In this document: piece by piece, positions 6,563 to 39,774 of the stretch | Layout of the letters: each line of letters starts with the position of its first letter | How positions within the stretch are numbered: the stretch's first letter is position 1 | Source: Thermodesulfobacteriota bacterium | GTDB taxonomy: Bacteria > Desulfobacterota > Binatia > Bin18 | Assembly (NCBI GenBank): GCA_964291405.2 | Contig: OZ219926.1 | Location: forward strand, 2,528,001-2,592,000 | Direction: 5' to 3' | Length of the DNA stretch: 64,000 nucleotides | Made by a program: the position numbers and the translations under genes | The notes under the pieces: generated by a model | Told to the model about the DNA's origin: nothing | Databases searched by the model: none | The model's input: the letters and a program-made list of their open reading frames with translations, nothing else

Positions 6563-6589
6563 ACCGGCTCCTCCTCTCAGGTTTGGTCT

Positions 6590-6955: not shown

Positions 6956-7717
6956 ATGGCAGGCGTATTAGCGGGAAAAATTGCGTTGATTACCGGAGCC
7001 GGTTCAGGGATCGGGCGCGCCTCTGCCCTCGCCTTTGCGCGGGAAGGTGCAACCGTGGTGGTCAGCGATATTATTGCCGACGGAGGCGAGGAGACTGTCC
7101 AACTCGTTAAGGCGGCGGGAGGAGAGGCCCGCTTTCTTCAAGTCGATGTCTCCCAAGCCGCTGAGGTTGAGGGGCTCATCACCCAGATCGTCGAAACGTA
7201 CGGACGCCTTGATTGCGCCTACAACAACGCGGGGATCGAAGGGGAAAACGTGTTGACCGCCGAAACCAGCGAAGAGGGCTGGGACCGTACCATGGCCATT
7301 AACCTCAAGGGCGTCTGGCTGTGCATGAAATATGAGATTCTTCAGATGCTCAAACAGGGCGGCGGTTCCATTGTGAACACCTCCTCGGCTTATGGCTTAG
7401 TGGGCGGCTACCGCCTACCGGCCTATATCGCCAGCAAGCATGGTGTGGTCGGGATTACGCGCTCGGCGGCGTTGGAATACGCGCAGAGCGGTATCCGCGT
7501 GAACTGCGTCTGTCCGGGCGCGATTGAGACGCCCATGGTCAGTCGGCTGACCGAGGGTCAGCCTGAGATGGCCGACAAGATCGCAGAGATGGAGCCGGTC
7601 GGTCGGATGGGTCAGCCGGGAGAAATCGCGGAAGCCGTGGTTTGGCTCAGCTCCGACGCAGCCTCCTTTGTGACCGGCCACACCATGTCGGCGGATGGCG
7701 GCTGGTTGGCCCAATAG
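6956..7717 (+). CDS. Classical short-chain dehydrogenase/reductase
   Basis: TGAGSGIG, NNAG, YIASK motifs; AAGGAGG RBS. Confidence 0.95.
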   Translation: MAGVLAGKIALITGAGSGIGRASALAFAREGATVVVSDIIADGGEETVQLVKAAGGEARFLQVDVSQAAEVEGLITQIVETYGRLDCAYNNAGIEGENVLTAETSEEGWDRTMAINLKGVWLCMKYEILQMLKQGGGSIVNTSSAYGLVGGYRLPAYIASKHGVVGITRSAALEYAQSGIRVNCVCPGAIETPMVSRLTEGQPEMADKIAEMEPVGRMGQPGEIAEAVVWLSSDAASFVTGHTMSADGGWLAQ

Positions 7718-23162: not shown

Positions 23163-24175
23163 TCAGTGGAGTCCGGGTATCACTTCTTTGGCGAAGAGTT
23201 CCATTGAGCGCTGGCTCTTGGCCGGGTCGAGGCCGGGCAGGTGCATGCCCAGGACAAGATGCGTGGTGCGCACTTCCTGGGTAAACCGCTCAATCTCCTG
23301 CCCGATTTCTTCCGGGGTACCGATCATGGGGCTGGCGAGCAAGCGCTCGGGATGCTCCCGCAACTCGGCTGGAGGCGGCAGTTGGCTGAACTGCTCAGCC
23401 CCAGGGAAATCCTTGGCCTCGGCCAGCCAACGACCATACCAACTCAGCATGTAGTGGAGATGATCCTGGGCTTCATCCCAGGCTTGATCGTGACTTGGGG
23501 CGGCATACGCCCAGCGCAACTGGGCAGCATGGTAATCCTTCGGGTCGCGCCCATGCCGGCGCAGCGCGGCATCGTACGCTTCCTGGACCGCTGAGGTTCC
23601 TCCGCCGAGAAAGTGACAGCCCAGACGCGCGGCCCGCTCGACCGCCTTTGGCGCGTTGGCACCGATCCACAAGGGCGGATGTGGGCTCTGGGCCGGTTTG
23701 GGCTGAAGGCGAATCTCTTTCAACTGGTAGTGCTTGCCCTCATAGGAGAAGGGATCCTGGGTCCAGATGCCCCGGATGACCTCAACTCCCTCCTCCATGC
23801 GCGAGCCGCGCTCCTTGCGCGGAATACCATAACCGGCAAACTCGACAGGGGCATACCCCTGTCCCAGCCCCAGGTCAAAGCGCCCTCCACGGTTGCCGCC
23901 GCGTCCTCAGCAACCCGCACGGCGTTGTGCAGGGGCAAGAGGATCAGAAATGTTCCAATACGCACCCGGCTCGTCATCGCGGACAGCGTCCCGGCAATCG
24001 GCAGCAGCGAGGGCGAGTAGCCGTCTTCAGCAAAGTGATGTTCCGTCAGCCAGATCGTGTCATAGCCGAGTTCCTCGGCCACCTGGGCCTGACGTAATTG
24101 CTCGGCATAGAATTGGGGAAACGGCTTGCGCCATTGGGGGGGATTCCGAAAGGGAAAGAGTAAACCGATATCCAT
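23163..24175 (-). pseudogene. LLM-class oxidoreductase split by a short deletion near 23888
   Basis: WLTEHHF, AVRVAEDAAATV then other frame GRFDLGLGQGY; the expected D-x-x-S-x segment is missing. Confidence 0.85.
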
Positions 24176-24204
24176 AACGCCCTCCTTGTTTTGAATACGG
24201 TTAT

Positions 24205-25320
24205 TCAGACTTCAATATTGTACAGCTTCGCCGCGGTGTCGTGCACAATCTTACGCCGGTCGGTTGCTGAGAGCTCATTGAACGTCTCATTAATAAAGTC
24301 CTGAGAACGCGGCCAGGTCGCGGCCGTATGTGGATAGTCCGACGACCACATGGCATTGTCCGGACCATAGATGTCAAGCGTCCGGATAAACAACGGCTCA
24401 TTAATAAAGGTCGCATACACCTGCCGCCGAACATAGTCGCTCGGCTTGAGGCTCAACTTCGCCGTCGTTCCCATAGATCCTAACCGCCCGTGTATGAGAT
24501 CCATACGCCACATAAAATACGACATCCAAGCGACGTCGTTCTCAGCCGAAACGATCTTGAGTTTGGGGAAACGCTCCAGGACACCGCCAAGGACAAAGAC
24601 CGCCAAGGACCGCTCGACCTCGTGGTACAGCGTGGTGGCCTGGAGGGCGAGGTTGCCGCTAAAGAAATCGACTCCGGTCCCCTTTCGGCCCGTCAGGATG
24701 TGCAGCGAGAGCGGCATGTTGAGATCTGATGCCGCCGCCCAGAAGGGATCATAGTCGGTATGGCTGTACGGCCGATCGTCCGGCGCCTCGGCCCAAATCA
24801 TCGCTCCTCTGACGCCTCTTTTGGCGCAGCGCTCAAGCTCTTTTACCCCGGCATCAATGTCTTCCAAGGTAATCAGTCCGAGTGGCAGCAGCCGTTTCGG
24901 ATCATGGCTGCAATACTCTGCCGACCAGTCATTATACGCGCGAAAACAGGAGAACCGCAGTTCTGCATCGTCCAGCATGTAGAGCGGCATCCCCATGGAG
25001 GTGTAGATCGCCTCGGCAACCACACCGTCACGGTCCTGGTCTTTCAGCCGGGCGGCTGGGTCCCATACACTGGCCGGGGCCTGATCCATGCCTTTTTTAT
25101 TATGTTCAGGGAGATCTTCTGACGGCACGCCCGCACCAAAAAACGCAGCCACTGGAAAGGGCGTAATATTCTCGCAGACAAAATACTCGCCCTCTTTCCC
25201 GTGGAGGTCTTTCACTGTATGCGGAGCCTTATCTCGAAACTTCTTATCGATCCGCTCCTGCCAGATGTTTATAGGTTCTACGAAATGTGAATCCGCCGAA
25301 ATGACACCATATTCCGCCAT
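24205..25320 (-). CDS. Amidohydrolase_2 family protein
   Basis: ISADSH, PLSLHI, GVLERFPKL, WSSDYPH. Confidence 0.9.
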   Translation of the reverse strand: MAEYGVISADSHFVEPINIWQERIDKKFRDKAPHTVKDLHGKEGEYFVCENITPFPVAAFFGAGVPSEDLPEHNKKGMDQAPASVWDPAARLKDQDRDGVVAEAIYTSMGMPLYMLDDAELRFSCFRAYNDWSAEYCSHDPKRLLPLGLITLEDIDAGVKELERCAKRGVRGAMIWAEAPDDRPYSHTDYDPFWAAASDLNMPLSLHILTGRKGTGVDFFSGNLALQATTLYHEVERSLAVFVLGGVLERFPKLKIVSAENDVAWMSYFMWRMDLIHGRLGSMGTTAKLSLKPSDYVRRQVYATFINEPLFIRTLDIYGPDNAMWSSDYPHTAATWPRSQDFINETFNELSATDRRKIVHDTAAKLYNIEV

Positions 25321-25438
25321 AAAACACCCTCCTTGTTTGGGACGGTTATTGGACAAAAACTCCCCGAGAACCTTCTGGTGCTGCTACGATACGGCGTCTT
25401 GCTCGATTTTTGCAAGAGATTTTTAGGAGCGTGTGTAC

Positions 25439-25472
25439 AAAAAAAGGGACAGTCCTCTCGAGCTGTCCCTTT
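25439..25472 (-). terminator. Rho-independent terminator after frc-like gene
   Basis: AAAGGGACAG/CTGTCCCTTT stem followed by a T run on the minus strand. Confidence 0.75.
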
Positions 25473-25500
25473 CTGTGCGTGAAGAGAATTGGGTGAGGCA

Positions 25501-26691
25501 CTAGATCAGCCCAGCTTCTCGCATCGTCGCGATGGCTTCTTCGTCATAGCCGAGTTCCGCTAAGACCTCAGCACTATGCTCGCCGAGCAGGGGCGCAGGC
25601 CGTAGCGGAACATCCGAGGCCGCCAGCTTGATGGGATTGCCGGCCATGGTGTACGTGCCGCGCGTGGGATGATCGAGTTCGAGAATCATGTCCCGTGCGC
25701 GCAAATGGGGATCGTTCATGACTTCGCCCGTGTCCTGACACGCCCCGCACGGCACCCCGGCCTCGGCTAAAATCTGCATGACTTCCTGTTTCGGTTTGCT
25801 CGATGTCCATGCTTCGATAAAAGCATTCACTTCAGCGGCGTGCTCAACCCGGGCCTCGGGGGTGTGATAGCGTGGGTCGTCAATCAAGTCTTCCCGTTGT
25901 ATGGCGCACAGCAAGGGGTCCCACATCTGCTGCTGGGCAATAATGAACACATAGTCGTTGGGCCCGCCGGGATGGCAACGATACGTTGTGGCGGGGACAA
26001 ACCCGAGTTGATTGCCCGTGCGTTCAACCGGTTTTCCATTGCGCTGGTGGTCGCGCAGGCTGACCCGAACCAGATTCACCACCGCGTCCTGCATGGACAC
26101 TTCGACCTGTTGGCCGGCTCCCGTGGTGTGGCGCTGCATCAGGGCGGCCAGGATGCCGATGACGCAGTGCATACCGGTGCCCGAGTCTCCCACACACGAC
26201 CAGGTGACGGTGGGCGGATTGTCGGGAAAACCGGTTACGCTCATCGAGCCGCCCATCGCCTGGGCGACGGGTTCAAAACTCTTGAACGAGCTATACGGCC
26301 CAGACGAACCAAAACCTTTGATGCTGGCGTAGACCAGGCGCGGATTGAGCTGTTTGAGGCGGTCATAGCCAAACCCGAGCCGTTCCATCGTGCCGGGTCC
26401 GAAGTTCTCCAGCACGACATCTGCGGTTGCCACCAGTTTTTGAAAGGCCTGCTTGCCTTCCGGCTGTTTGAGGTCAAGCGCGAGGCTGCGCTTGTTGGCA
26501 TTGAAAAAAAGGAAGAAGAGACTGTCCGTCCCCGGCCGGTCATTCAGACTCACGCGGGCGATATCGCCCCGTCCGGGCGGCTCGACCTTGATCACGTCGG
26601 CCCCGAGCCAGGCTAAAATCTGGCCACACGACGGGCCAGCCTGATTATGGGTCAAGTCCAGCACCCGGATACCATCAAGCGCAGTGCTCAT
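25501..26691 (-). CDS. frc: Formyl-CoA transferase-like class III CoA-transferase
   Basis: QAGPSC, GDSGTGMH (catalytic Asp), SMQDAVVNLVRVSLRDHQR resembling Frc. Confidence 0.75.
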   Translation of the reverse strand: MSTALDGIRVLDLTHNQAGPSCGQILAWLGADVIKVEPPGRGDIARVSLNDRPGTDSLFFLFFNANKRSLALDLKQPEGKQAFQKLVATADVVLENFGPGTMERLGFGYDRLKQLNPRLVYASIKGFGSSGPYSSFKSFEPVAQAMGGSMSVTGFPDNPPTVTWSCVGDSGTGMHCVIGILAALMQRHTTGAGQQVEVSMQDAVVNLVRVSLRDHQRNGKPVERTGNQLGFVPATTYRCHPGGPNDYVFIIAQQQMWDPLLCAIQREDLIDDPRYHTPEARVEHAAEVNAFIEAWTSSKPKQEVMQILAEAGVPCGACQDTGEVMNDPHLRARDMILELDHPTRGTYTMAGNPIKLAASDVPLRPAPLLGEHSAEVLAELGYDEEAIATMREAGLI

Positions 26692-26758
26692 TGTCTCACG
26701 CTCCCTTCCATAGTGTCACTCGCCTCTCCCCCGGTCTTGAGGGCCGCTTGGGGCCGCG

Positions 26759-27589
26759 TCAAAAATACCAGGCCAGAGTCAGCGACAGATTGACCTCGTC
26801 GTTATCGACCCGCACCGGCACAAAGACCCCTTCATCCTTCAGATTGAAAGAAACCCAGTCTTCGGCCAGATACCCGGTATAGCGCACCTCGCCCCGGAGG
26901 CCGAGCCGCGAGCCGAACATTTTTTCCAGTCCCGCGCCACTCGTCCACGCGGTAAAATTCTCGTTATGGGTATTGGCGCCGCTCGTGAACTCGTCGGGCT
27001 GGCACCACTCGATTTTGAGACAGCCGTGAAAACGGACGCGGAAGCGCGTCGCCACCCGGCGTACACCCGCCAGGGCGTATATGCTCGAATCGCCTATCAT
27101 CGTCTGAAGAAATTGCGGGCTGGTTCCCAGTTTGAAGGTCAGCCCGTAGCTGAAATTTTTGGCAAAGGACCAGTCGTCGGGCCAGCTCTCGCCCATCTGG
27201 TTGCGGCCCTCGGACTCGCCGATACCCTTGAGCCGCCCACGTGCGGACTCGCCGTGGAAGGCGATATCAAATTCGCTGTCCAGGAAGAGCCGCCCCTGGT
27301 CAAGCAGCGGCCAGCGATACCCGGCCAGCAAACCGAACCCATACCCGGTCGCGTCGGCGGAGTCGCGGTCGCGGTGCACCTTTCCGCTCTGGGAGGTCAT
27401 ATTGAGCGGGCTGGTATTGTCCACGGTCTTTCTGTACGAGGTGTCCAGCCATTCCGGGGTGCCGGTGATGCCCAGATAGAAGCGCCCCGAGTCGGCGAGG
27501 GCCGTAGCAACGGCGCTCGGGCTCGCCATGATGACACCCGCCAGCAGCATATATGAGAATTTTTTCCTCACTTTTGTCAACACCCCCAT
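26759..27589 (-). CDS. Outer-membrane beta-barrel protein
   Basis: Signal peptide, alternating amphipathic strands, C-terminal WYF. Confidence 0.7.
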   Translation of the reverse strand: MGVLTKVRKKFSYMLLAGVIMASPSAVATALADSGRFYLGITGTPEWLDTSYRKTVDNTSPLNMTSQSGKVHRDRDSADATGYGFGLLAGYRWPLLDQGRLFLDSEFDIAFHGESARGRLKGIGESEGRNQMGESWPDDWSFAKNFSYGLTFKLGTSPQFLQTMIGDSSIYALAGVRRVATRFRVRFHGCLKIEWCQPDEFTSGANTHNENFTAWTSGAGLEKMFGSRLGLRGEVRYTGYLAEDWVSFNLKDEGVFVPVRVDNDEVNLSLTLAWYF

Positions 27590-27832
27590 ACCTCCCTCTC
27601 TATCCTCTGCCCAAAATGAGCAATTTCAATCATTTGGAACGTAAAATCACTCTTCTTACATTTTGGGCTTCTGCTGGACATTTCATAGAGAGTGTATAGC
27701 AGTTTGACACCTTATTCCGCGCGGTGCAAATCAGGAGGAGAGAGTGGGGCGTGTGGATTGTCGATATGGTATATAGTGGTGCTATGGTGCCGACAGCAAT
27801 GAATCATCGCCTATGAATCGGAGTGTATCCCC

Positions 27833-28077
27833 ATGCCTCGCCTGACCATCAGTTTAGCCGACCGGACACACCGGGCACTGAAGGAAGCTGCGGCCGGCAG
27901 AATCGTTCCATGGATTCAATCATCGAGGAAAGCCTGGAACTGAGAGGAATCCGACCCTACGACACCGCCAAGGAGATCGTCGCCAAGGCACGAGCGCAGT
28001 CTGGATTGAAAGCTCCCGACGCGATGGCCCTGGCAGTCGAGAAAACAAGACGTTTTCGTGACGAGCAATCGCGCTGA
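27833..28077 (+). pseudogene. Ribbon-helix-helix (CopG-like) antitoxin, -1 frameshift near 27893, no toxin
   Basis: MPRLTISLADRTHRALKEAAA joins RQNRSMDSIIEESLELRGI if one C is added. Confidence 0.7.
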
Positions 28078-28282
28078 GCGGCGTCTCTGTGACTTCCCCT
28101 CGTGGTTTCGTGGATATGTTTTTGTCCCCCAAAGAAATCTGATCGGCTCTCCTCGTAGCCTCGCCTCCCCTTGAACGGAACGATAAAACGCATTCCTCCC
28201 GTTTGGTGGCTTACGCTTCACGAGCGATTTTAAGCCTTTATCCTATCTGTATTTTCTCTTTATCAAAAGAGTAACATCAGAA

Positions 28283-28340
28283 TTTTTGCCAAAAAATCTA
28301 TTGCCAAAAATATCTTTGTCATTTATTGTGATGCTACACT
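28283..28340 (+). promoter_or_regulatory. Putative promoter/operator of the paired-ATPase operon
   Basis: Two TTGCCAAAAA direct repeats; TTGCCA-17-TATTGT and extended -10 TGcTACACT; AT-rich. Confidence 0.45.
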
Positions 28341-28364
28341 AAAATCTCCACAGGAGATTCATAT

Positions 28365-29561
28365 ATGCGCAACATCACTGGACAGGCAGTCGTCGGTGAC
28401 GACCTCTATGGACGAGATTACGAATTGGACCGCCTCTGGGAAAAGCTGCAACAAGGCGAGCACATTCTGATGCTCGCCCCCAGGCGGGTGGGCAAGACCA
28501 GCTTGATGCTGGAACTCCGCCGCGCGCCCCGTGAGAATTGGGATGTTATCTATGTGGATGTTGAAAGTGGAGACGACCCGGCTGACTGCATAGCGGCTAT
28601 TATCGCTGCTCTGGCAGCCAATCCCCAATATCGAAGCCGTTTCGAGGCGATTCCATTCTCGAACGCTATCAAGGATGTCTTTGGACGCCTGTCCGCCAGT
28701 GTCGATACTGGAATATTACATGTCGAGCTCAAACAGGCGATTGGTCGTGAGTGGGAACACGCCGCAGACCAACTTACGGCGCGTCTGACGAGCCTGCCGA
28801 GCACTGGCAGCAATCTTCTGATCATCATTGATGAGCTGCCACTCCTCCTTTCGCAGATGCTGCAAGCTGAGGAGCGGAAACGTGACGCCGAACTGCTGCT
28901 GTCTCGGCTTCGGTCCTGGCGCCAAGCGCCGGAATTGCGCACCAAAGTCCGCACGCTTGTTGGCGGGTCAATCGGACTCGAAGGGGTTCTGAGGCGCATT
29001 GGCCTTTCGGGATTGATCAATGACCTCTCCCCGTTCCGCCTGGACTCGTGGGAGAGGCCGACCGCTGTCAAATTTCTGAAGGGCCTGGGCGGTGATTATA
29101 GTTTTCATCTCGACGAAGGAGCTATCGCGCATATCCTAGACCTGCTGCGGGACCCCGTCCCGTACCACGTGCAACTCTTCTTTGATGCACTCCGCTATGC
29201 TTGCCAAGGTCAGTCTTCCCGCGTTTCGTCGGAAGTGATTGAACGGTGTTTCGCGGAACGGCTGGCAGGAGCCAGTGGCACCGCCCATCTGGACCATTAC
29301 GCCGCACGCCTCGAAATTGCATTTGACGAGAACGAACACGAAGTGGCACTCGAAATCCTGAGCCGAGTCTGCCAGCGAGGGAACGGTTTGAATCTTGCGG
29401 AACTCGAAGACCTGCGACAGCAAAGCGAGCAAACGTTCCGGTCAGTGCTGCGCGATCTGGAGGCCGACGGTTACATAGAGTATGAAGACAGCCGTCTGAA
29501 ATTCTGCTCGAATCTCCTACGGGAATGGTGGCGGAAATACCACGGGAGTGTCGCGTCATGA
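28365..29561 (+). CDS. STAND-like/archaeal-type P-loop ATPase with C-terminal winged helix
   Basis: LYGRDYEL, Walker A APRRVGKTS, Walker B LIIIDE, PYHVQL, L..LEADGYI...LLREWW. Confidence 0.85.
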   Translation: MRNITGQAVVGDDLYGRDYELDRLWEKLQQGEHILMLAPRRVGKTSLMLELRRAPRENWDVIYVDVESGDDPADCIAAIIAALAANPQYRSRFEAIPFSNAIKDVFGRLSASVDTGILHVELKQAIGREWEHAADQLTARLTSLPSTGSNLLIIIDELPLLLSQMLQAEERKRDAELLLSRLRSWRQAPELRTKVRTLVGGSIGLEGVLRRIGLSGLINDLSPFRLDSWERPTAVKFLKGLGGDYSFHLDEGAIAHILDLLRDPVPYHVQLFFDALRYACQGQSSRVSSEVIERCFAERLAGASGTAHLDHYAARLEIAFDENEHEVALEILSRVCQRGNGLNLAELEDLRQQSEQTFRSVLRDLEADGYIEYEDSRLKFCSNLLREWWRKYHGSVAS

Positions 29562-32275
29562 TCCGCCAGCGCCTTTACAACCCAGCCCAGTTGACCCCTG
29601 ACGAGTTGAAGGCATCGTTCGTCGCTCGTAAGGGAACCCTTGCAGAGATGATCCGTCTGATCCGCGAACAGCCGTGCGGACGGCCGTGTCAGCACATGAT
29701 GCTCATCGGCTCACGCGGAATGGGAAAGACCACCCTGGGGTTGCGGTTTCTGCACGCGGTTGAAGAATCGCCCGACCTTGCCGCAGATTGGCAACCCGTC
29801 CCGTTCTATGAGGAAAGCTACGGTGTCGGCAACTTGGCGGACTTCTGGCTTGCCGCCCTGCGCCATCTGACCCGCGCCACCGGGGATCCACGATGGGAGG
29901 AAAGAGCCGACGCCCTAGCCCAGGACGAAAGAGACACAGAGCGGCTTGCCGCGTATGCACTCGCAGCGCTCCTGGACTTTTGCCAGGCAAGCGGAAAACG
30001 ATTGATCCTGTTCGTCGAGAATCTCGATACTGTCTTCGAGCAGTTACACGACGAGCGTGAAGTTCACGCGCTACGCGCAAATCTGATTGAGCGTTCCGAT
30101 ATCCTACTGGTCGGATCGGCTAACGCCGTCTTTGAAGCCATTCAAGGCTATGGCAAACCGCTTTACGAGTTCTTCCGGCTCTTCATGCTCGAAGGTCTGG
30201 GGCAGGAAGAGACTCTCCAGATACTTAAAGTGCTTGCGGACCTTGAAGACAAGCCGGAAATTTTAGAAACCCTACGTCGTGAGAGCGGCCGACTGGAGAC
30301 CCTACGTCGGCTGACGGGCGGGAACCCGCGTCTGCTGGTTCTTGCCTGTCGGCTACTGATCGAATCGCCGCTCGGCTCTGCCTTTGAGGATCTGGAACGG
30401 CTCATCGACGAACAGACGCCTTATTTCAAAGCCCGGATTGAAGAATTACCGGTCCAATCCCGCAAAGTATTTCACTGTCTCGCGGAAGGATGGAAGCCGA
30501 TGCTGGCGAGGGAGGTTGCCGACGCCGCGAATCTAAACTCCTCGCACGCTAGCGCCCAACTCAAGCAACTTGTCGAAAAGGGCTATGCAAGAGAGATCCG
30601 GCTACAGGGAGCAAAGCGGATACGATATGAAGTCAGCGACCGGTTCTACAACATCTACTATCTGCTGCGTTTCTCGCGTGCAGGCCGGTACCGATTGGAG
30701 CGACTCGTCGCCTTCCTTCACGATCTTTTCGGCCCATCCGGAATGCGGATGATGTATCCGGCGACGCTGGAAGCATTGCGCGAGCACGGCTTGCCCACCT
30801 GGGAAGTATCCAATTGGCTCAGTATTTTGGCTGGCTACGTGGCCAGAGACAAAGACTTCAAAGGACGAGAGGATTGGCTACGCGAAGCGCTCAACCTTGC
30901 TAGTAACATGATCGGTCCACACGCACCCGTAATCGAGGAAATCAGCAAAACCTTTCCAAGTCAGGATTCATCGAGTCCAAGTAGCCTTATAGACTGGATA
31001 CAACGCGGTCACGCGCTGTTTAAAGACCGGCGTTTTGCGGACGCGGAAGCGGCGTACCGAAAGGCAACCGGAGAAATGCCGAATGACGCTACCGCATGGA
31101 CCGGGCTCGGCAAGGCACTGTTTGAACTGGGACGTTTCGAAGATGCGATAACTGCCCTTGGGCGGATACCTTTTGTCAATCCAAACGACTCGGTGTACTT
31201 GCGTGGTGTGACCGTTACGGCTCTCGGGACCAAAGCTGACGCTCTCACTGAATTGGGCCGACATGAAGAGGCTATCGCCATCTGGGAACGAATTACCGAG
31301 TATGTCCGTGTGAACGACCCAGCGGACCTGCGTCAGGGGGCTGCCTCAAGTCTCATATTCAAGGGTCTTGCTCTCACTGAATTGGGCCGACATGAAGAGG
31401 CTATCGCCATCTGGGAACGAATTACCGAGTATGTCCGTGTGAACGACCCAGCGGACCTGCGTCAGGGGGCTGCCTTGATTCTCATGACCAAAGGTTTTTC
31501 TCTCTCCGAGTTGGATCGACGTGACGAAGCTGTCACGGCCTGGGAGCAAGTTGCCGAATATGTCCGCCCAGATGACCCGATAGATCTGCGTCACGCGGCC
31601 GCCGTGGCGCTCGGCGCCAAGGGAAGCATTCTCTCCGAGTTGGAATGCTATGATGAAGCTATCACGGCCTGGGAGCAAGTTGCCGAATATGTCCGCCCGG
31701 ATGACCCGTCGGAACGACGCCAATTAATTGCGAGCGGGCTGACACGTGACAGTGGTCTCTTGTATATGGATGGGAGGTACAGAGAGGCGGAGGCCGCTTG
31801 CAGAAATGCGGCCAATATCGGGCCAACATACAGTGAAGTATGGCTCATCCTGGCGGAAACGATTCTTTGCCAGGGCGACGAAGAGCGTCTGCCGGAGGCC
31901 GAGGAGTGCGCCCGCCGCGCGGTGGAACTGGCACCGAAGGATCCGAGCGCCTTTCATACGCTCTCCGATGTCTTGGCTTGTCGCGGGCAATGGACAGAAG
32001 CGCTAGACCAGCTTGAAAATGCTCTGTCCATCGGCGGAGACGATTTCCAGGAACAAAATCGGCCCGGTTTAACGGAGTCGTTGAGCCGGGCCGTCGCCAC
32101 CGGCCACGGCTCGCGCGTCAAGCGGATAATGGAGGAAGCCGGACTGGCCGAGCCAATGGAGCCGCTCTGGCACGCTGTACGGGAAGAATTGGGCGAGGAA
32201 CTTGAACCCCTGCCCGCGGAGATCAGGGATACCGTGACCGAAATCCGACAAGAATTTACCGAGAAAAGACGTTGA
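29558..32275 (+). CDS. STAND-like ATPase - wHTH - TPR-like repeat protein
   Basis: Walker A GSRGMGKTT, Walker B variant LFVENLD, TGGNPR, wHTH (QLKQLVEKGY), TPR-like C-terminus; ATGA overlap with upstream gene. Confidence 0.85.
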   Translation: MIRQRLYNPAQLTPDELKASFVARKGTLAEMIRLIREQPCGRPCQHMMLIGSRGMGKTTLGLRFLHAVEESPDLAADWQPVPFYEESYGVGNLADFWLAALRHLTRATGDPRWEERADALAQDERDTERLAAYALAALLDFCQASGKRLILFVENLDTVFEQLHDEREVHALRANLIERSDILLVGSANAVFEAIQGYGKPLYEFFRLFMLEGLGQEETLQILKVLADLEDKPEILETLRRESGRLETLRRLTGGNPRLLVLACRLLIESPLGSAFEDLERLIDEQTPYFKARIEELPVQSRKVFHCLAEGWKPMLAREVADAANLNSSHASAQLKQLVEKGYAREIRLQGAKRIRYEVSDRFYNIYYLLRFSRAGRYRLERLVAFLHDLFGPSGMRMMYPATLEALREHGLPTWEVSNWLSILAGYVARDKDFKGREDWLREALNLASNMIGPHAPVIEEISKTFPSQDSSSPSSLIDWIQRGHALFKDRRFADAEAAYRKATGEMPNDATAWTGLGKALFELGRFEDAITALGRIPFVNPNDSVYLRGVTVTALGTKADALTELGRHEEAIAIWERITEYVRVNDPADLRQGAASSLIFKGLALTELGRHEEAIAIWERITEYVRVNDPADLRQGAALILMTKGFSLSELDRRDEAVTAWEQVAEYVRPDDPIDLRHAAAVALGAKGSILSELECYDEAITAWEQVAEYVRPDDPSERRQLIASGLTRDSGLLYMDGRYREAEAACRNAANIGPTYSEVWLILAETILCQGDEERLPEAEECARRAVELAPKDPSAFHTLSDVLACRGQWTEALDQLENALSIGGDDFQEQNRPGLTESLSRAVATGHGSRVKRIMEEAGLAEPMEPLWHAVREELGEELEPLPAEIRDTVTEIRQEFTEKRR
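31241..31710 (+). repeat. 129-bp (43-aa) tandem coding repeats, four units
   Basis: 31241-31346 identical to 31370-31475; units starting 31501 and 31630 closely similar to each other. Confidence 0.9.
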
Positions 32276-32302
32276 ATACGATACAATGAACCCCGTGACT
32301 CT

Positions 32303-32692
32303 ATGGCAAGTGCAAGGACCAGACCATTTAATATCGCTGACCACCCCGGCAGCCCCGAGGAGATCGCCACGTACTTGGACGCCGTTCTGGAAGAAGGAGA
32401 TGACAAGCTCTTGCTGGTGGCGCTGCGCAACGTTGTTAAATCCAAGGGTTTTACCAAGGTCGCCCAAGGGGCTGGTTTACTACGCGAGACCTTGTACCAG
32501 TCCTTCTCGGAAGACGGTAATCCCCGGCTCTCCACCTTGAGCGGCGTTCTTGGGCAGTTGGGCATGCGGCTCAGCGTGCTTTACGGAGGAACAGTGTCCC
32601 GGATATGGGACATGTTGTCAGCGGCTTCAAGGGCGTTCCGAAGGTCGGATGGGTCGCAGGCGTTCAGCCAACAGCCTCGCCACATGGTCTGA
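32303..32692 (+). CDS. Addiction-module antidote HTH protein (orphan; C-terminus probably read-through)
   Basis: SPEEIATYL.A.LEEGD..LL..ALR, VAQ.AGL.RETLY..FS.DGNPRLSTL..VL..LG.RL. Confidence 0.75.
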   Translation: MASARTRPFNIADHPGSPEEIATYLDAVLEEGDDKLLLVALRNVVKSKGFTKVAQGAGLLRETLYQSFSEDGNPRLSTLSGVLGQLGMRLSVLYGGTVSRIWDMLSAASRAFRRSDGSQAFSQQPRHMV

Positions 32693-32846
32693 GATGGTCA
32701 GATTTGCTGTTCTTTCTGTTCCCCATTATAGGTCGGGAACAGCGGAACAGATTCTTTTTCAAGGTCTAACCCTTTGGAATCGCTGGACAGTTGCTGTTCC
32801 CGGTATGCTGCCGAAACCACTGTGTTTTCGGGACCCTCGGGAACAG

Positions 32847-32906
32847 CAAAATAGAGGTACGGATCGCCCCTTTTGCCAAAATAGAGGTACGGATCGCCCC
32901 TTTTGC
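32847..32906. repeat. Perfect 30-bp tandem duplication
   Basis: CAAAATAGAGGTACGGATCGCCCCTTTTGC x2 at the hsdR truncation point. Confidence 0.9.
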
Positions 32907-33042
32907 CGCGCACGATAATGCGGCCCTTGGTGAAGCTGACCTCACGGCGAATCTGCGCAGCCTCGTCCCAGCCGGCCCGGTGCAGGGCCGGGGTGATGTA
33001 CTTGGCGCAAACATCGCTTTCACTGAGGCGTGTCTTTTCCAT
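32905..33042 (-). pseudogene. hsdR: N-terminal stub of Type I restriction subunit R (EcoAI-like)
   Basis: LSESDVCAKYITPALHRAGWD...IRREVSFTKGRIIVRGK resembles the EcoAI-family HsdR start; AAGGAAG RBS. Confidence 0.8.
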
Positions 33043-33143
33043 GGCGAGCTTCCTTCATTCATCACATCCCACCCTCGTGCGCTAGCGCGCCGCCTCCACA
33101 TCCCTTGACCCTTGAGGAGAGTCTGCGCAACGGGCGTGTTCGA

Positions 33144-33182
33144 TTGACATGTGGTAGCATGCAAGTAGGTTTGTCACATGTC
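33144..33182 (+). promoter_or_regulatory. Sigma70-like promoter with inverted-repeat operator; probably leaderless
   Basis: TTGACA-16-TAGGTT ending 6 nt before ATG 33178; GACATGTG...CACATGTC inverted repeat. Confidence 0.55.
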
Positions 33183-33408
33183 GAAAATGATTCAGTTGCG
33201 AAACGTTCCCGATGCACTGCATAGGGTCCTCAAGTCCAGGGCTGCGCTGGCTGGGAAGTCGCTGTCTGACTATCTCATTGCGGAGATGCAGCGCCACGCC
33301 GAATATCCGACCGTAGAAGAGCTCCGCCAGCGCCTCCACGCCCGCACCCCGGTGCGTCCCACCCTTTCACCGGCCCACATAGTCCGGGAAGAACGGGACG
33401 GCCGGTGA
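33178..33408 (+). CDS. FitA-like ribbon-helix-helix antitoxin (orphan)
   Basis: MIQLRNVPDALHRVLKSRAALAGKSLSDYL; followed by GTG ATT GTT GAT TAG, a 4-codon PIN-like start. Confidence 0.85.
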   Translation: MSKMIQLRNVPDALHRVLKSRAALAGKSLSDYLIAEMQRHAEYPTVEELRQRLHARTPVRPTLSPAHIVREERDGR

Positions 33409-33415
33409 TTGTTGA

Positions 33416-33766
33416 TTAGGCCAATGGAATAAACAGCGACTTTCTGGGCCTGCCGTTGACCGCCCGGCTGATATGTCCCTGACCGGTGGTATCTTCGGCC
33501 AGCAGAATCTCGCCCGTGCCCAGAATGCGCTTCGTGCCGTCGCCAGTCTCGATCTCGACCTCCCCCTCAAGCATGACCACATACTGCCGACGCGGCGCGT
33601 TGTGAAAATCGAGGTCATAGTCACCGCCCGTTTCTCGAAAGATCACGCCGGTTGCCGGAATGAGCTCGGAGAGCCGCCCGACGACATTCCCGTCTTTGAG
33701 CGGAATCTCGACATCCTCAAAATGCGACTGGTTGTCCGGACCCGTATAGATGCGGGTGACTTTCAT
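33416..33766 (-). CDS. Cupin-fold protein
   Basis: HNAPRRQYVVMLEGEVEI, GEILLAEDTTGQGH. Confidence 0.8.
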   Translation of the reverse strand: MKVTRIYTGPDNQSHFEDVEIPLKDGNVVGRLSELIPATGVIFRETGGDYDLDFHNAPRRQYVVMLEGEVEIETGDGTKRILGTGEILLAEDTTGQGHISRAVNGRPRKSLFIPLA

Positions 33767-33940
33767 GCTGGGCCTCCCTTCCACAGGTTCTGAACTGTAT
33801 GATACCGGCCCCTTGAGTGTCAAATCATCCCGGATTTTCCGGTCCTTTTTCAGTCAGCTTACCTGGACAGTGCCACCACCCATGACTTATAGTTGGGCGG
33901 CTGTAATGAGAAGAGACCAGCGAAGATAGAGGAGACTCCT

Positions 33941-35023
33941 ATGCGCGCCGTAGTGATGCTGAACCATGAACTGACCGTTGAAGATATTTCCGTTCCAGAG
34001 CCCGGACCGGGCGAGGTCTTGGTCAAAACCCTGGCCTGTGGGATTTGCGGCTCGGACCTCCATGCGCTGAAGCATACGGAGAAGCTGGTCGAAGTCTCAG
34101 AGCGCTCCAACGGCGTGTTTAATATGGACCTCAGCCGGGGCATCGTCATGGGTCATGAGTTCTGTTTCGAGGTGGTTGACCACGGGCCGAACACGGACCG
34201 CACTCTCAAAGCCGGCACCCGCGCGGTGTCCATGCCGGTTCTCATTCGACCGACCGGTGTCGAGACGGTCGGCTATTCAAATGACAACCCAGGTGGCTAC
34301 GGGGAGTATATGCGCCTGAGTGAAAAGCTGTTGATTGAAGTCCCGAATGGCCTGCCGACACAGAAAGCTGCCCTGACCGAACCCATGGCAGTCGGCCTGC
34401 ATGCGGTTGAAATGGCGCGCCTGACAACAGACGACGTGCCGCTGGTTATCGGCTGTGGGCCGGTCGGTCTGGCTGTGGTCGCGTCGCTACGCATGAAAGG
34501 GGTGCAGCCCATTATCGCCGCGGATTTCTCCTCCCGCCGCCGCCAGCTTGCGCAGGCCGTGGGCGCGGATATCGTCATCGACCCCGCCGAGCAGTCGCCG
34601 TATACCAGTTGGCAGGAGGCTGCGGTCTGGGCCGACCCGAGCACGGCTCCGCCCCAGCCGCCCTGGGCTTCGGGTCCGCCGCTGCGGCCGGCCGTCATGT
34701 TTGAATGCGTCGGTGTCCCTGGGGTCATTGATCAGATTATGGCTGCGGCCCCACAGGGCACCCGGATTGTGGTTGTGGGCGTGTGTATGGAAAAGGACAG
34801 CTTTGAACCCATGTTCGGGATCAACAAAGAGTTGAATCTTCAATTCGTCCTGGGCTATAGCGGGGAAGAATATGCGTCCACCCTGCATCATATTGCAGAA
34901 GGCCAGATTATGACCGACCCATTAATTACGGGGACCGTAGGGATAGAGGGAGTTGCCCAGGCATTCAAAGACCTGCACTCGCCTGAGCAGCACGCGAAAA
35001 TTATCGTGGAACCCTGGCACTAA
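33941..35023 (+). CDS. Zinc-dependent medium-chain dehydrogenase
   Basis: CGICGSDLH, GHEF, GCGPVG; GAGGAG RBS. Confidence 0.92.
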   Translation: MRAVVMLNHELTVEDISVPEPGPGEVLVKTLACGICGSDLHALKHTEKLVEVSERSNGVFNMDLSRGIVMGHEFCFEVVDHGPNTDRTLKAGTRAVSMPVLIRPTGVETVGYSNDNPGGYGEYMRLSEKLLIEVPNGLPTQKAALTEPMAVGLHAVEMARLTTDDVPLVIGCGPVGLAVVASLRMKGVQPIIAADFSSRRRQLAQAVGADIVIDPAEQSPYTSWQEAAVWADPSTAPPQPPWASGPPLRPAVMFECVGVPGVIDQIMAAAPQGTRIVVVGVCMEKDSFEPMFGINKELNLQFVLGYSGEEYASTLHHIAEGQIMTDPLITGTVGIEGVAQAFKDLHSPEQHAKIIVEPWH

Positions 35024-37792: not shown

Positions 37793-38926
37793 TCACCCTT
37801 TGTCAATCAGAAACAGAAATTCTCGGTTCGGGCATTCTGCATCGCGCAACCATTCGTTCGTCCACTTCATTCCCGCCATAACATTGCGCTTGTAGTCAAC
37901 CTCGATAACATCAATGACTTCGCCCCTGAGAGATAAAATGTTGTGTAATTCGTCTGCCGTTGCCCGGCCGCCCGAACTGTAGGAGAGTATAATCCACCGT
38001 GCCGTCGTCGATTGTATTAGGCGTTCAATTGCCTCAACCGCAATGAATCGGCCCGTGCGAGGGTTTCTCTTGAATTCCTCAAATACTGATCCAGAGAGGG
38101 TGTCGGACGTGTCTCTTCTTCTCTTTGCCTTACCGAATAATTCCGGGAAGTCATTGAGACAGATAGTCGTCCATAAATGATAATAGGACGCATACCGAAC
38201 GCGTGACGGAGGCATCTTTTCGTTATTTGATCCATAGGGAGGATCAAAATAGGCAAGATCAACGTTGCAATTGGCAATGTCAAATATATCGCCACGATGA
38301 ATGTCGTGCTTACATTCGTAAGAAACCAAATCGGGCACTTCAAGATACAAATCGTGGAACGATCGTGGAGACCATTTCTGGAGATAGGAGACAAAATGAC
38401 CAAGCGTACTATCGACACGATCTAACCCTAGAATGAGACTCGTCAGCGCCACTGCCCTCTCAATCGGGGACAAAGAAAGACGGTCAATTTCTTGACGAAT
38501 TCCGTCCAATTTTCGCGTATTATGAATCTGCCAGGGTCTTTTCAGGCCGTCACTCTGAACAGAACTGCCGGCATTGGACTCGCCGCCATAGTGCTCGGTA
38601 AACCAGCCGTCTCTTGGCTGAACCTTGTTCAGACTGCGAATCAGTGTCGAATAACCTTCCTTTGGCCGGTCGCTGAGCAAATAGCATTGCCCGAAAACCT
38701 CTGACCATACCGCAATATCATTGCTGACAACCCGATACCCTGACTGGGCGAGTGCTTGGGATACACGAGTTGATCCTGAGAAGCCGTCAAGGACGCTCTT
38801 CGCCTCGGTTCGATGGGCCAAGTCGAGAATGTAGGAAAGCAGCTTCAATTTAGAGCCGGCATATTTTATGCCCTCTGTGGTCGGCCTATCGACTACGATG
38901 TCACTGAACAGCGATAAATTGTTCAT
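37793..38926 (-). CDS. N6-adenine DNA methyltransferase (D12/Dam-FokI class)
   Basis: IKYAGSK..LL, LDGFSGS, YFDPPY, LSYS, EFLF. Confidence 0.9.
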   Translation of the reverse strand: MNNLSLFSDIVVDRPTTEGIKYAGSKLKLLSYILDLAHRTEAKSVLDGFSGSTRVSQALAQSGYRVVSNDIAVWSEVFGQCYLLSDRPKEGYSTLIRSLNKVQPRDGWFTEHYGGESNAGSSVQSDGLKRPWQIHNTRKLDGIRQEIDRLSLSPIERAVALTSLILGLDRVDSTLGHFVSYLQKWSPRSFHDLYLEVPDLVSYECKHDIHRGDIFDIANCNVDLAYFDPPYGSNNEKMPPSRVRYASYYHLWTTICLNDFPELFGKAKRRRDTSDTLSGSVFEEFKRNPRTGRFIAVEAIERLIQSTTARWIILSYSSGGRATADELHNILSLRGEVIDVIEVDYKRNVMAGMKWTNEWLRDAECPNREFLFLIDKG

Positions 38927-39774
38927 CGAACAAGACCCGCACGTTCTTTCAATAGGAGAATATCCTCTTTGATCTTCCCGAGTGCCGTTTCATGACCATT
39001 TATGGACGAGACAAGCGCATGTGAGAAAAGTTGTACCAAAACGTTATTGTGCGAATAGTTAATCCAGCCGTTAGTAATGCTATCAAAAAATTTGAGACCA
39101 TTTTTAGTGTGCGTCCAAAGACCCCGTTGAAGTGCGTTTGCAGCAGCATCGCCATAACGCACCTCACAGATATAATCGCCTTCGGCGTCATGAAATCGAT
39201 AGACTGGATGCTTTCTCCCTCTTCCTACTCCTACATATCTAATCTGGGTGGTCGCACTACGTGCTTTGGCATAATCGAAAACCAAGATGTTACAGCGTTT
39301 ACTTTTTTCATCGTAAATTAACGGCAAGACATTGATATTGCTAAAGTCTGAAAAGGCAGGATCATTCATAATCTCCTGGACACGACCACCCTCAATGATG
39401 CCTCTGTTTTCTTTTTCAAGACGAGGAAACATGGAGTTATTCTTGTCGGTGGAGAGTTGCAGAGGCCCATCGCCATACGCTTTAAGGCTGACCGGAAATT
39501 CCTTTTTCGTAATCTCGTTAATTATCTTGATGTCTTCCTCTTGAGATTTAGCTCGAAACAAATCTTTTCCAACGTGTATGGAACGAAAATCATACATGTA
39601 CTGGTTAATAAATTCAGAGATCGCAATTTCGGCAAGATCGCCATGCGTTTTGTTGCCAATGAGCCGCATGGCCAATATATTGCTCAGTGTTGTGGTAATG
39701 AGTTCCGGTTGTTTGCTGACCAGAAGTTTGAGACGCGTTGTAAAGTCCTGGTATGCGGCGGCTGTGTCTGTCAC
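38923..39774 (-). CDS. Putative Type II restriction endonuclease
   Basis: AT-rich; ATGA-coupled to the MTase; GDLAE...EEDI...VSLK resembles a PD-SxK nuclease core. Confidence 0.6.
   Translation of the reverse strand: MTDTAAAYQDFTTRLKLLVSKQPELITTTLSNILAMRLIGNKTHGDLAEIAISEFINQYMYDFRSIHVGKDLFRAKSQEEDIKIINEITKKEFPVSLKAYGDGPLQLSTDKNNSMFPRLEKENRGIIEGGRVQEIMNDPAFSDFSNINVLPLIYDEKSKRCNILVFDYAKARSATTQIRYVGVGRGRKHPVYRFHDAEGDYICEVRYGDAAANALQRGLWTHTKNGLKFFDSITNGWINYSHNNVLVQLFSHALVSSINGHETALGKIKEDILLLKERAGLVR

Follow-up and report, generated by a model that had tools for sequence, protein, structure and literature searches.

[quoted passage not shown] As reportedly defined by Leipe et al. in 2004, a STAND protein combines a P-loop NTPase with Walker A and B motifs, a helical domain with a GxP motif and then a winged helix directly after the NTPase, and a repeat sensor and an effector on one protein. 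In the characterised bacterial STANDs that we know of, the effector lies on the same protein or beside the receptor; in the Avs/AVAST systems it is N-terminal (a nuclease, protease, SIR2, TIR or similar), and a phage protein triggers protection. In plants, paired NLRs are linked and related NOD proteins, in which the sensor combines the recognition part with a degenerate nucleotide site, and the helper keeps an intact site. Many heteromeric AAA+ complexes include inactive paralogues. For the archaeal PF01637 proteins PAB2304 (PDB 2qen) and SSO1545 (2fna), we know of no function and of no description with a TPR-bearing paralogue.

PMC6468293 presents PH0952 (6mfv) as a predicted transcription factor, and gives both PH0952 and MalT an effector domain dedicated to DNA binding (ArsR-like or LuxR-type). 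ORC-CDC6/STAND components are proposed as DNA sensors in ParA-based systems called 'HINPO' in bioRxiv 10.64898/2026.10.19.760177.

The locus described here lies in a window of 64,000 nucleotides (contig OZ219926.1, positions 2,528,001 to 2,592,000) from a Thermodesulfobacteriota bacterium, and all the coordinates below refer to this window. An earlier note had pointed to two coupled ATPase genes as a candidate undescribed defence or signalling system. Gene A (28365-29561, forward strand) encodes a 398-aa AAA+ ATPase of the ORC/STAND type with a C-terminal winged helix, and an AGGAG is found 8 nt upstream of its ATG. Gene B (29558-32275, forward strand) encodes a 905-aa STAND-like NTPase. The open reading frame of B begins at 29525 in the ORF list; we set the gene start at 29558 because the ATG at this position forms the ATGA overlap already recognised by the note with the TGA stop of A (29558-29561), the database copy of B is also 905 aa long, and all aligned homologues except one, which has a longer N-terminus, start at the matching Met.

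The alignments bore out the Walker motifs that had been read in the two genes, including the contrast between IIDE and FVEN. In A, Walker A is APRRVGKTS (residues 38-46, G43-K44) and Walker B is LLIIIDE, with D156 and E157 invariant in 28/28 aligned sequences. In B, Walker A is GSRGMGKTT (residues 51-59) and Walker B is ILFVEN (E154-N155), where N155 is invariant in 19/19 and 22/22 aligned sequences and is preceded by E or D. This split, canonical in A and [E/D]-N in B, holds over four phyla; [E/D]-N is present in four of the five B proteins compared among plasmids and the window, and a short Segatella B keeps DE and has no TPRs. As B retains its Walker A and carries an invariant Asn in place of the catalytic Glu, it probably binds ATP and hydrolyses it poorly.

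Beyond the nucleotide site, B is organised in an NBD (residues 1-210), helical and winged-helix domains (216-372), an arm (377-465) and a TPR region (475-905); the AF2 model (pLDDT 85.8) places the winged helix at residues 299-372. The invariant TGGNPR (T253-R258) sits between helices of the helical domain, ahead of the winged helix, and is aligned with DPVP at residues 263-266 of A, where P266 is present in at least 90% of the rows; both motifs are GxP-like by alignment position. The winged helix of A spans residues 344-392 (AF2 model, pLDDT 90.7). Profile alignment (hhalign probability 98%, E 1.1e-13, 332 columns) identifies A and the N-terminal ~370 residues of B as paralogous modules of the ORC/STAND type. 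The winged helices claimed in the earlier note were found in both proteins, but they are intrinsic to this module and do not form an added output domain.

The module is widespread: among 1.84 billion cluster representatives (50% identity), at least 1,497 clusters match the A profile at E ≤ 1e-30, and the number rises to 4,095 at E ≤ 1e-10. In the N-terminal modules, identity across the 120 best-scoring proteins listed is 65-90% for A and 73-90% for B. Such strong N-terminal conservation is unusual for fast-evolving immune genes.

The best PDB matches of A by sequence profile were 2qen (E 1.4e-9) and 2fna (E 1.1e-8), and the same two led the Foldseek search with the A model (2qen, E 2.2e-10, TMq 0.61; 2fna, E 6.9e-8, TMq 0.58), followed by ORC/Cdc6 structures (ranks 3-8), CED-4 and NRC. 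Both archaeal proteins share with A an AAA+ module with a C-terminal winged helix and a PRRxGKT Walker A. The score of A on PF01637 (ATPase_2), 20.7 bits, falls short of the cut-off of 33.2, yet many close A homologues have a precomputed match to this family and the PDB matches are of that kind, so we regard A as a divergent relative and not as a scored member. ORC/Cdc6 proteins likewise have an AAA+ module with a helical insert and then a C-terminal winged helix, as in A, and the A-B pair resembles heteromeric AAA+ complexes in combining an active and a degenerate nucleotide site. Unlike ORC/Cdc6, which is essential, single-copy and origin-linked, A-B is patchy, mobile and multi-copy, includes TPRs in B, and displays no origin link; PF24389 ('ORC-CDC6-like') matches just the initial ~60 residues of B-type proteins.

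Searches of named families agreed with the expectation that no described system would be hit. No system-specific match of A or B was obtained in PADLOC-DB v2.0.0 or NCBIfam release 20: the best PADLOC matches were mad8 (1.9e-4) and PDC-S27 (2.5e-4), over short P-loop stretches, and NCBIfam returned nothing for A and, for B, just TPR noise far under the cut-offs. In Pfam, the generic AAA_16 passes for B (36.4 vs 32.6), and nSTAND1, nSTAND6 and ATPase_2 are all under the cut-offs for both proteins; neither reaches the gathering score of a curated STAND model (NACHT, NB-ARC, nSTAND). PGAP calls one Moraxella B homologue 'NACHT domain-containing'; PF05729 is not found in the B of the window and occurs, below threshold, in two homologues only. 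The reported absence of an effector also stood: no nuclease, TIR, SIR2 or protease family was found in A or B at E ≤ 0.01 in Pfam, PADLOC and NCBIfam. A-B matches no named system, and is a candidate for an undescribed pair with an immune-like or signalling role.

Set beside the STAND description, both proteins have the P-loop (GKT and DE in A, GKT and [E/D]N in B) and the GxP helical domain with winged helix, whereas sensor and effector are not joined on one protein: B has TPRs without an effector, and A has neither. The Foldseek top match of B is 6mfv_A, a STAND with a TPR sensor (841 columns, E 1.4e-10), in keeping with the STAND-like architecture first proposed for B; Avs3 and SAMD9 appear at ranks 37-43. 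With the Avs/AVAST proteins and further prokaryotic STANDs linked to defence, as covered in Lee et al. (Nature 2026, PMC13581612), B shares a P-loop NTPase, the helical domain with the GxP-like TGGNPR, a winged helix and a TPR-like mosaic sensor, but A-B has no N- or C-terminal effector domain, has an obligatory second gene for a paralogous sensor-less NTPase, and carries [E/D]-N in the Walker B. The Avs models of PADLOC v2 gave no match to A or B at E ≤ 0.01, and, in the accessible supplementary tables of PMC13581612, which list representatives and may be truncated, six RefSeq accessions of plasmid homologues and family terms such as COG1672 and AAA_16 are not found.

Coherently with the claim of a repeat sensor solely in the second gene, Pfam detected TPRs only in B, in stretches at about residues 480-830. 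The central TPR block (30908-31897, forward strand, residues 451-780) is variable: its identity to 97 full-length homologues spans 34-52%, compared with 56-95% (residues 1-450) and 58-81% (residues 781-900) in the flanking regions, and in blastn comparisons between loci the nucleotide similarity across the block vanishes or drops to 65-74%. Both dS and dN are raised in the block, with dN/dS at 0.22-0.33 and not above 1. Tandem Repeats Finder identified 129-bp (43-aa) TPR-type tandem repeats in about 3.5 copies (31241-31707, forward strand), of which the leading 1.8 copies are 100% identical. The central TPR block of B is a mosaic, with a fresh tandem duplication.

The two genes are inherited together in genomes, metagenomes and plasmids, which establishes the coupling asserted in the earlier note and answers its call to examine co-occurrence. 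A and B are directly adjacent and in order in 5/5 close genome loci and, in 13/14 loci fetched from a sample of 401 genomes of the phylum (A identity 22-32%), B directly follows A; a B-profile search of the same genomes gave 17 places, 15 with an A-type gene directly upstream. In metagenome loci the order is kept in 9/9 assessable cases, and a tenth stops at the contig edge. Pairs also occur on plasmids of Clostridium tagluense, C. estertheticum, Moraxella osloensis and Segatella copri, although plasmid copies are rare (8 records among 72,556). Over the phylum and these plasmids, the adjacency persists to identities as low as 22-30%; in the viral contigs and phage records searched, there was no A-B copy. 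When 20 loci were compared, only the A and B clusters were common to more than four, and no conserved third gene accompanies the pair.

A-type genes are present in 14 of the 401 genomes, and the pair in 14-15; they are patchily distributed, with several copies in some genomes and with some of the copies broken. This bears on the possibility that A-B is a dispensable, and hence patchy, ORC/RFC-like AAA+ complex outside conflict, acting as a chaperone or as an accessory of DNA metabolism. The high conservation of the N-terminal modules and the many loci that sit among ordinary metabolic genes suit such a cellular function, but the rarity of the pair within the phylum, the mobility and multiplicity of the cassette and the mosaic repeat domain of B make it very unlikely.

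A-B is a compact, horizontally mobile cassette of ~4 kb with sharp borders. We mapped it to 28268-32302 (forward strand; promoter, A and B) by comparing positions 26001-35000, with blastn, to loci whose flanks are unrelated (L001, L005, L036/L037 and L039): the left border falls at 28268-28285 and the right one at 32293-32302, depending on the locus compared, i.e., ~80-97 bp upstream of A and ~20-27 bp downstream of B. Contigs from two sequencing runs part from the window just before 28274/28275. At the syntenic site of a congeneric genome, nothing corresponds to the region 24186-33446; two cassette copies lie on one contig, and one genome contains two pairs. These features invite comparison with a selfish or maintenance module, either a toxin-antitoxin-like addiction pair or a DNA-handling AAA+ accessory of the MuB/TnsC/IstB type. 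The operon is compact, overlapping and apparently autoregulated, it sits in toxin-antitoxin-rich spots, MuB and TnsC are among the Foldseek matches of A, and IS elements or a recombinase are near some plasmid copies. Nevertheless, A and B are far bigger than typical toxin-antitoxin partners and are paralogues, the pair has no conserved transposase or integrase neighbour, and no terminal repeats stood out, which leaves this reading highly improbable.

Upstream of A, at the left edge of the cassette, two direct repeats of TTGCCAAAAA (28286-28296 and 28301-28310, forward strand), 15 bp apart and operator-like, were detected by TRF (period 15). The element is kept in 9/9 aligned cassette copies, with similarity ending just upstream, and is present in three further loci; most of the distant cassettes inspected have other short repeats at their promoters, and in three distant ones no promoter repeats are evident. 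A sigma-70-like promoter follows at 28316-28345 (forward strand), predicted by pattern match in a consensus scan (TTGTCA, 18-nt spacer, TAAAAT; 10/12).

A conserved operator-like element raises the question of whether A-B is a pair of STAND-type transcription regulators, in which the TPRs of B would sense a metabolite or protein, as in MalT and PH0952, and the winged helices of A and/or B would bind the promoter repeats and other genome sites to switch a regulon on or off. The conserved repeats with their 15-bp spacing and weak matches of the MarR, TrmB and IclR winged-helix types in A, B and homologues agree with this, and we retain the reading since, among solved structures, the nearest analogue of B is that of a predicted transcription factor: NOD, arm and TPR sensor follow one another in B as in PH0952/MalT, and 6mfv is its best full-length structural match, although the low TM-scores (0.19/0.24) restrict the likeness to architecture. 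On the other hand, no dedicated LuxR- or ArsR-like domain was found in A, B or the 10 B homologues scanned, the winged helix being part of the NTPase module, and PH0952 and MalT need no paralogous partner gene. No neighbour is conserved with A-B, and, since the cassette moves alone with close borders, its own promoter would be the sole conserved target; the patchy distribution, with several and sometimes broken copies, is also against a regulon switch. Overall, we consider a regulator pair unlikely but worth keeping in view.

The surroundings of the pair match those described in the earlier note (antitoxin remnants, an hsdR stub, and R-M and Avs-like genes 6-8 kb away). Within ~8 kb there are an antidote gene (32303-32692; PF21716, 1e-22), an N-terminal stub of a type I REase, hsdR (32698-33042, reverse strand; PADLOC REase_I 3.8e-13, covering positions 5-67 of the 807 in the profile), type II MTase and REase genes (37793-38926 and 38923-39774, respectively), and a second STAND-like gene of 1525 aa (39956-44533; PDC-M54A 5.8e-24). 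Elsewhere, the Moraxella copy has QatD, a kinase and a methylase nearby, the Segatella copy DUF262 and WYL genes, and the C. estertheticum copy GIY-YIG and DUF3800 genes. Counting specific PADLOC hits at E ≤ 1e-10, defence genes lie within 5 kb of 7/18 pair loci vs 4/15 random 10-kb control windows from three related genomes; in this small control the pair loci are not clearly richer, and the defence-island enrichment put forward as a check did not emerge.

As regards physical association, prediction of the A-B complex gave an ipSAE of 0.39 (runs 0.33, 0.47 and 0.39) vs 0.00 for the best control, a score at which most such predictions are wrong unless the two proteins were already likely to pair. 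The ipSAE mark is reached by 116/157 solved complexes and 2/215 mismatched pairs, and the passes at ≤0.60 comprise only 18/157 solved complexes and both passing mismatches. The runs share at least 61% of contacts, with partner pLDDT of at least 76. The model weakly suggests the hetero-oligomer proposed in the earlier note.

A role in conflict or defence against invading genetic elements is, in our view, the most likely for A-B, with a signalling or regulatory role as the main alternative. The specific reading that we favour, though we give it slightly less than an even chance, is a self-regulated two-protein NTP switch in conflict or defence, made of a poorly hydrolysing TPR sensor and a hydrolysing partner. 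The variable TPR solenoid of B would bind the trigger; A would be the hydrolysis-competent partner, produced in step with B via the ATGA overlap, and upon the trigger the two may assemble as a hetero-oligomer. As no enzymatic effector is encoded, the output would be placed in the ATPase of A and/or in winged-helix domains acting on DNA in an ORC-like manner, and this part is guesswork. Through the repeats conserved at its promoter, the operon is probably autorepressed.

A narrower version, an effector-less sensor-helper pair, appears rather doubtful to us: the TPR-bearing B, impaired in hydrolysis, would recognise an invader protein and draw the active A into a hetero-oligomer resembling ORC, which would halt the invader by clamping or remodelling DNA or by burning ATP, and the DNA-binding surface of this complex would also autoregulate the cassette. 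Here the analogy with plant NLR pairs concerns the pairing logic, with no evidence of common descent, and helper NLRs carry an executioner domain where A has none. HINPO offers another case of an AAA+ NTPase of the ORC/STAND clade with a proposed action on DNA in a conflict system, but its partners (HEPN, inactive nucleotidyltransferase and ParA) do not adjoin A-B.

A-B splits roles over two paralogous NTPases, a sensor with a degenerate site and a partner with an intact one. The cassette is 4 kb long with its own predicted promoter, and culturable Clostridium and Moraxella carry homologues on plasmids. As a regulator, A-B would represent STAND signalling in a new, two-protein form; as a defence system, it would bring a new output logic and a sensor/helper arrangement to bacteria, and, if the effector-less pair is true, bacterial immunity would gain a new mode and paired NLRs a counterpart in bacteria.

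The coupled two-ATPase module pointed out in the earlier note is real, and the observation is stronger than its author could know. Gene A (28365-29561, forward strand) is an ORF of 398 aa with an AGGAG located 8 nt upstream of its start, and gene B (29558-32275, forward strand) encodes 905 aa. The open frame of B begins at 29525 in the ORF list, and we placed the gene start at 29558 because the database copy is 905 aa long and the homologues start at this Met: its equivalent begins all the aligned B homologues but one, whose N-terminus is longer. The ATG at 29558 and the TGA of gene A form an ATGA overlap. Reading the protein sequences, we found a Walker A motif in both proteins (APRRVGKTS in A, GSRGMGKTT in B), a canonical Walker B in A (LLIIIDE) and an altered one in B (ILFVEN), and the Pfam models confined the TPRs to gene B, all as first noticed on the DNA. 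Among 28 aligned A sequences, G43, K44, D156, E157, R183, and S202 are invariant, as are G56, K57, E85, E86, N155, R173, and T253-G-G-N-P-R258 in the B alignments. On the Clostridium and Moraxella plasmids too, A has DE where B has [E/D]-N; the short Segatella B, of 298 aa, is without TPR and retains DE in its Walker B.

On A, Pfam gave sub-threshold matches only (AAA_16, AAA_22, nSTAND1, and ATPase_2), with a weak MarR-like match at the C-terminus. The PDB matches of a profile of 28 A sequences were 2qen (1.4e-9) and 2fna (1.1e-8), both archaeal AAA+/winged-helix proteins. The same two entries head the structural matches of the AlphaFold model of A (pLDDT 90.7), followed by ORC/Cdc6, CED-4, and the NB-ARC modules of plant NLRs. 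On B, above threshold, Pfam returned only the generic AAA_16 and many TPR models. The AlphaFold model of B (pLDDT 85.8) comprises a predicted NTPase (residues 1-210), a helical domain with a winged helix (216-372), a helical arm (377-465), and a TPR solenoid (475-905), and PH0952 (6mfv), a STAND protein whose sensor consists of TPRs, is its best match in Foldseek. No curated STAND family scores A or B as a member at Pfam thresholds. In its working, B resembles a STAND receptor, whereas A resembles an ORC/Cdc6-type or archaeal PF01637-type ATPase.

Homology between A and B spans the whole module, up to residue ~370 of B (profile-profile probability 98%, E 1.1e-13, 332 columns). The winged helix that the earlier note had read in both proteins is thus present, but it is intrinsic to the ORC/STAND module, as the whole-module homology indicates, and is not an appended output domain. 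An effector domain is absent in all 10 B homologues scanned. The likeness of A and B to the sensor/helper NLR pairs of plants is one of logic only.

The pairing itself is strongly conserved. B lies directly after A in 5/5 close loci on genome contigs. Of 401 genomes evenly sampled from the window's phylum, 14 carry an A-type gene (homologue of A), and 14 of its 16 places were fetched: at 13 of these, a B-type gene lies directly downstream on the same strand, with identities to the window's proteins of 22-32% for A and 24-34% for B, and locus L035 has an A-type gene without B. Searching the same 401 genomes with the B profile yielded 17 places in 15 genomes; 14 coincide with the A loci, one further place has an A-type gene upstream, and at L079 and L080 no A-type gene was found upstream within ~1.4 kb. 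Among the metagenome loci, B follows A in nine of ten, and the tenth stops 50 nt past A. Eight plasmid records carry an A-type gene and six were examined: in five, a B-type gene overlaps the end of A, its product being of 530 aa in C. tagluense, 943 aa in C. estertheticum, 699 aa in each of two M. osloensis plasmids, and 298 aa in S. copri, and the Methylomonas record holds only a B-type fragment of 93 aa. The expected co-occurrence of homologous pairs was therefore borne out in genome, metagenome, and plasmid loci. When all the predicted ORFs of 20 loci were clustered, no third conserved gene or effector emerged, save for the local synteny of close relatives. Fusion of the two genes was also considered and rejected: only two longer proteins were found, each joining the C-terminal half of A and B in one frame, and these are probably decayed or miscalled loci.

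The gene overlap, the strict co-occurrence, and the paralogy make it very likely that A and B act jointly. The proposal that they form a hetero-oligomer was addressed by a structure-based complex test, in which A+B obtained an ipSAE of 0.39 (runs 0.33, 0.47, and 0.39) and the best of three controls had 0.00, with at least 61% of contacts in agreement between the runs and a partner pLDDT of at least 76. Of 157 solved complexes, 116 attain the mark of this test, as do two of 215 mismatched pairs, and passes at 0.60 or below comprise only 18 of the 157 solved complexes plus both passing mismatches. Since heteromeric AAA+ complexes have already been solved, part of the A+B score may reflect likeness to known structures. 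The predicted complex stands above its controls, but the result is graded as weak support.

The two genes and their promoter form a cassette of ~4 kb with sharp limits. Compared with loci having unrelated flanks, blastn-level similarity starts at 28268-28285 and stops at 32293-32302, and contigs from two sequencing runs part from the window just before 28274/28275. One contig carries two copies in differing contexts (L003 and L004), and genome G005 of the phylum sample has two pairs. Furthermore, in the congeneric genome G110, the syntenic site (C1:679041-679076) lacks the ~9.3 kb at 24186-33446, and the flanks are 35 bp apart. This stretch contains an amidohydrolase, a CoA-transferase, an OMP barrel, the A-B pair, an antidote gene, and an hsdR stub, and the site, between a luciferase-like gene and an alcohol dehydrogenase, is variable. 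The luciferase-like monooxygenase (23163-24175, reverse strand) is split into two overlapping ORFs of 151 aa (profile 1-90) and 211 aa (127-309), probably by a frameshift or through an error of assembly. Several cassettes look broken, in B (L001, L002), in A (L005, L045, L083), or in both genes (L034), and some of those in metagenome-assembled genomes may be assembly errors. In plasmid p4 of Moraxella osloensis (L083), the A-type gene is split at 5636-7684 by an IS5 transposase gene and B is intact; PGAP names this B a "NACHT domain-containing protein".

The control region belongs to the cassette. A sigma-70-like promoter (28316-28345; TTGTCA, 18 nt, TAAAAT) lies upstream of the AGGAG and is accompanied by two TTGCCAAAAA repeats, 15 bp apart, at 28286-28310. 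The promoter region and both repeats are kept in 9/9 aligned cassettes, even where their proteins are only 69% identical, and similarity among these nine ends just before the first repeat. Most of the distant cassettes for which the 100 nt before the A-type gene were examined have short direct or inverted repeats of their own near the promoter (L022-L026, L030, L031, L064, and L065), and no evident repeat was found there in L027, L028, and L033. In L022-L026, two or three copies of TGTTGG or TTGGCA lie between the -10 region and the ribosome-binding site, the last overlapping the latter; in the Moraxella cassette, a palindromic unit occurs three times. The repeats differ from one protein subfamily to another. 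The density of TGCCAA/TTGGCA plus TGTTGG/CCAACA is 1.6 per 100 nt upstream vs 0.12 in the same loci, a descriptive count only, as the motif was picked after data inspection. From these sequences, we infer that the promoter repeats are operators, by which the winged-helix proteins of the cassette would regulate their own expression.

Within B, conservation is uneven. Over 97 full-length homologues compared with the window's B, identity per 30-residue bin is 56-95% at residues 1-450, and it is 34-52% at residues 451-780 and 58-81% at residues 781-900. The DNA of the TPR block is unalignable, or 65-74% identical, where the rest of the cassette is 86-91% identical, and a sponge-metagenome contig matches both sides of the block and not its middle. 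In pairwise estimates against four close cassettes, the block has a dS of 1.4-2.2 and a dN/dS of 0.22-0.33, vs 0.34-0.63 and 0.10-0.17 for the N-terminal 450 codons. Positive selection on the TPRs was rejected, since dN/dS is not above 1 and dS is raised too. The raised dS points to recombination or repeat turnover, or to repeat misalignment; on the alignments, the history of the block would be separate, and older or recombinant, or its repeats may be aligned non-orthologously. Amino-acid change in the block is not simply in excess. In the window, a 129-bp unit is repeated ~3.5 times at 31241-31707, and the identity of its first 1.8 copies indicates a very recent duplication.

As the earlier note expected, no named system was matched: PADLOC v2, NCBIfam release 20, and Pfam gave generic or sub-threshold matches only, and none of the PADLOC v2 and NCBIfam release 20 models names A or B. 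Searches of the literature on STAND, ORC-CDC6-like, Avs, and paired-NLR proteins did not retrieve a pair of this kind. A 2026 survey of prokaryotic STAND proteins reports 589 clades, 198 of them defence-associated (PMC13581612); the supplementary tables searched, which list representatives and may be truncated, include neither six accessions of plasmid homologues nor the family terms tried. Of 1.84 billion representatives of clusters at 50% identity, the A profile matched 14,065 at E <= 0.001, 4,095 at <= 1e-10, and 1,497 at <= 1e-30, and most of the best 150 matches listed are ~380-425 aa long. In the ESM Atlas, look-alike clusters with generic names span Bacteroidota, Campylobacterota, Pseudomonadota, and Actinomycetota. 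Among the public runs X1-X22, sponge metagenomes of several studies contain near-identical parts of the cassette (window 28250-32300), which suggests sponge-associated bacteria as hosts of its close family. In one RNA-library run, short contigs fall on parts of A and B at a depth of 2-5; they may be DNA carry-over and so are no proof of transcription, and the uncovered parts of the stretch in that run carry no meaning.

The flanks are as the earlier note described them, with antitoxin remnants, an hsdR stub, and R-M and Avs-like genes. A stand-alone antidote gene ("downstream of HI1420") lies at 32303-32692 (forward strand), with no toxin partner seen, and is followed by the N-terminal stub of a type I REase (32698-33042, reverse strand; profile positions 5-67 of 807). 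An element of ~346 bp (89-92% identity) is found upstream of the pair in the window (27741-28085) and downstream in L001 (14119-14462) and L004 (12009-12344); in L004 it spans an ORF of 81 aa that immediately precedes the gene for a PIN_3 toxin, and the window's copy is probably an antitoxin remnant. A complete type II R-M pair is present at 37793-39774 (reverse strand), with a D12-class MTase (MTase_II, 7.4e-162) and a REase (REase_II, 2e-135; both PADLOC). It sits in the lowest-GC segment of the window (0.46 at 38-40 kb), which suggests recent acquisition. Adjoining it, a gene for a STAND-like protein of 1525 aa (39956-44533, forward strand; weak AAA_22, nSTAND5, and HEAT; PADLOC candidate PDC-M54A, 5.8e-24) is a second NTPase receptor, unrelated to A-B.

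A role in defence is favored by the patchy distribution, mobility, multiple copies, decay, and mosaic repeat sensor of the pair, and by neighboring genes of defence or TA type, both in the window and on plasmids. In Moraxella, the plasmid neighbors include QatD, a KAP-type NTPase, a kinase, and a methylase; those in Segatella include DUF262 and WYL genes, and those in C. estertheticum DUF3800, GIY-YIG, and integrase genes. We compared 147 neighbor ORFs within 5 kb of 18 pair loci, leaving out L035 (without B) and L038 (whose downstream genes are as in L043, by ORF coordinates), with 143 ORFs from 15 random 10-kb windows of genomes G000, G039, and G110, leaving out L061-L063. Specific PADLOC matches at E <= 1e-10 were found at 7/18 pair loci (L001, L004, L027, L028, L030, L041, and L043) and in 4/15 control windows (L046, L047, L053, and L055), so that the proposed enrichment in defence islands was not demonstrated; matches to generic folds were deemed unspecific by eye (ABC ATPase to mad3/mad8, methyltransferase to mad2, sigma factor to MzaA, oxidoreductase to C3a156, and response regulator to CARF3). 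A phage or viral origin was rejected, as none of 41 pattern-matching stretches in viral contigs was confirmed, and tblastn gave no match in 50,697 phage records. Plasmid copies are rare. Because the control is unsupportive, viral and phage copies are absent from the collections searched, and plasmid copies are few, we give the reading of the pair as a defence system about an even chance. The main rival is that A and B are a STAND-type regulator pair.

Taken together, A and B are two paralogous ORC/STAND NTPases encoded by a compact and mobile unit, which is widespread and apparently regulates itself. The pair encodes no effector, its two members have split roles, and conflict or defence is the best guess for what it does.
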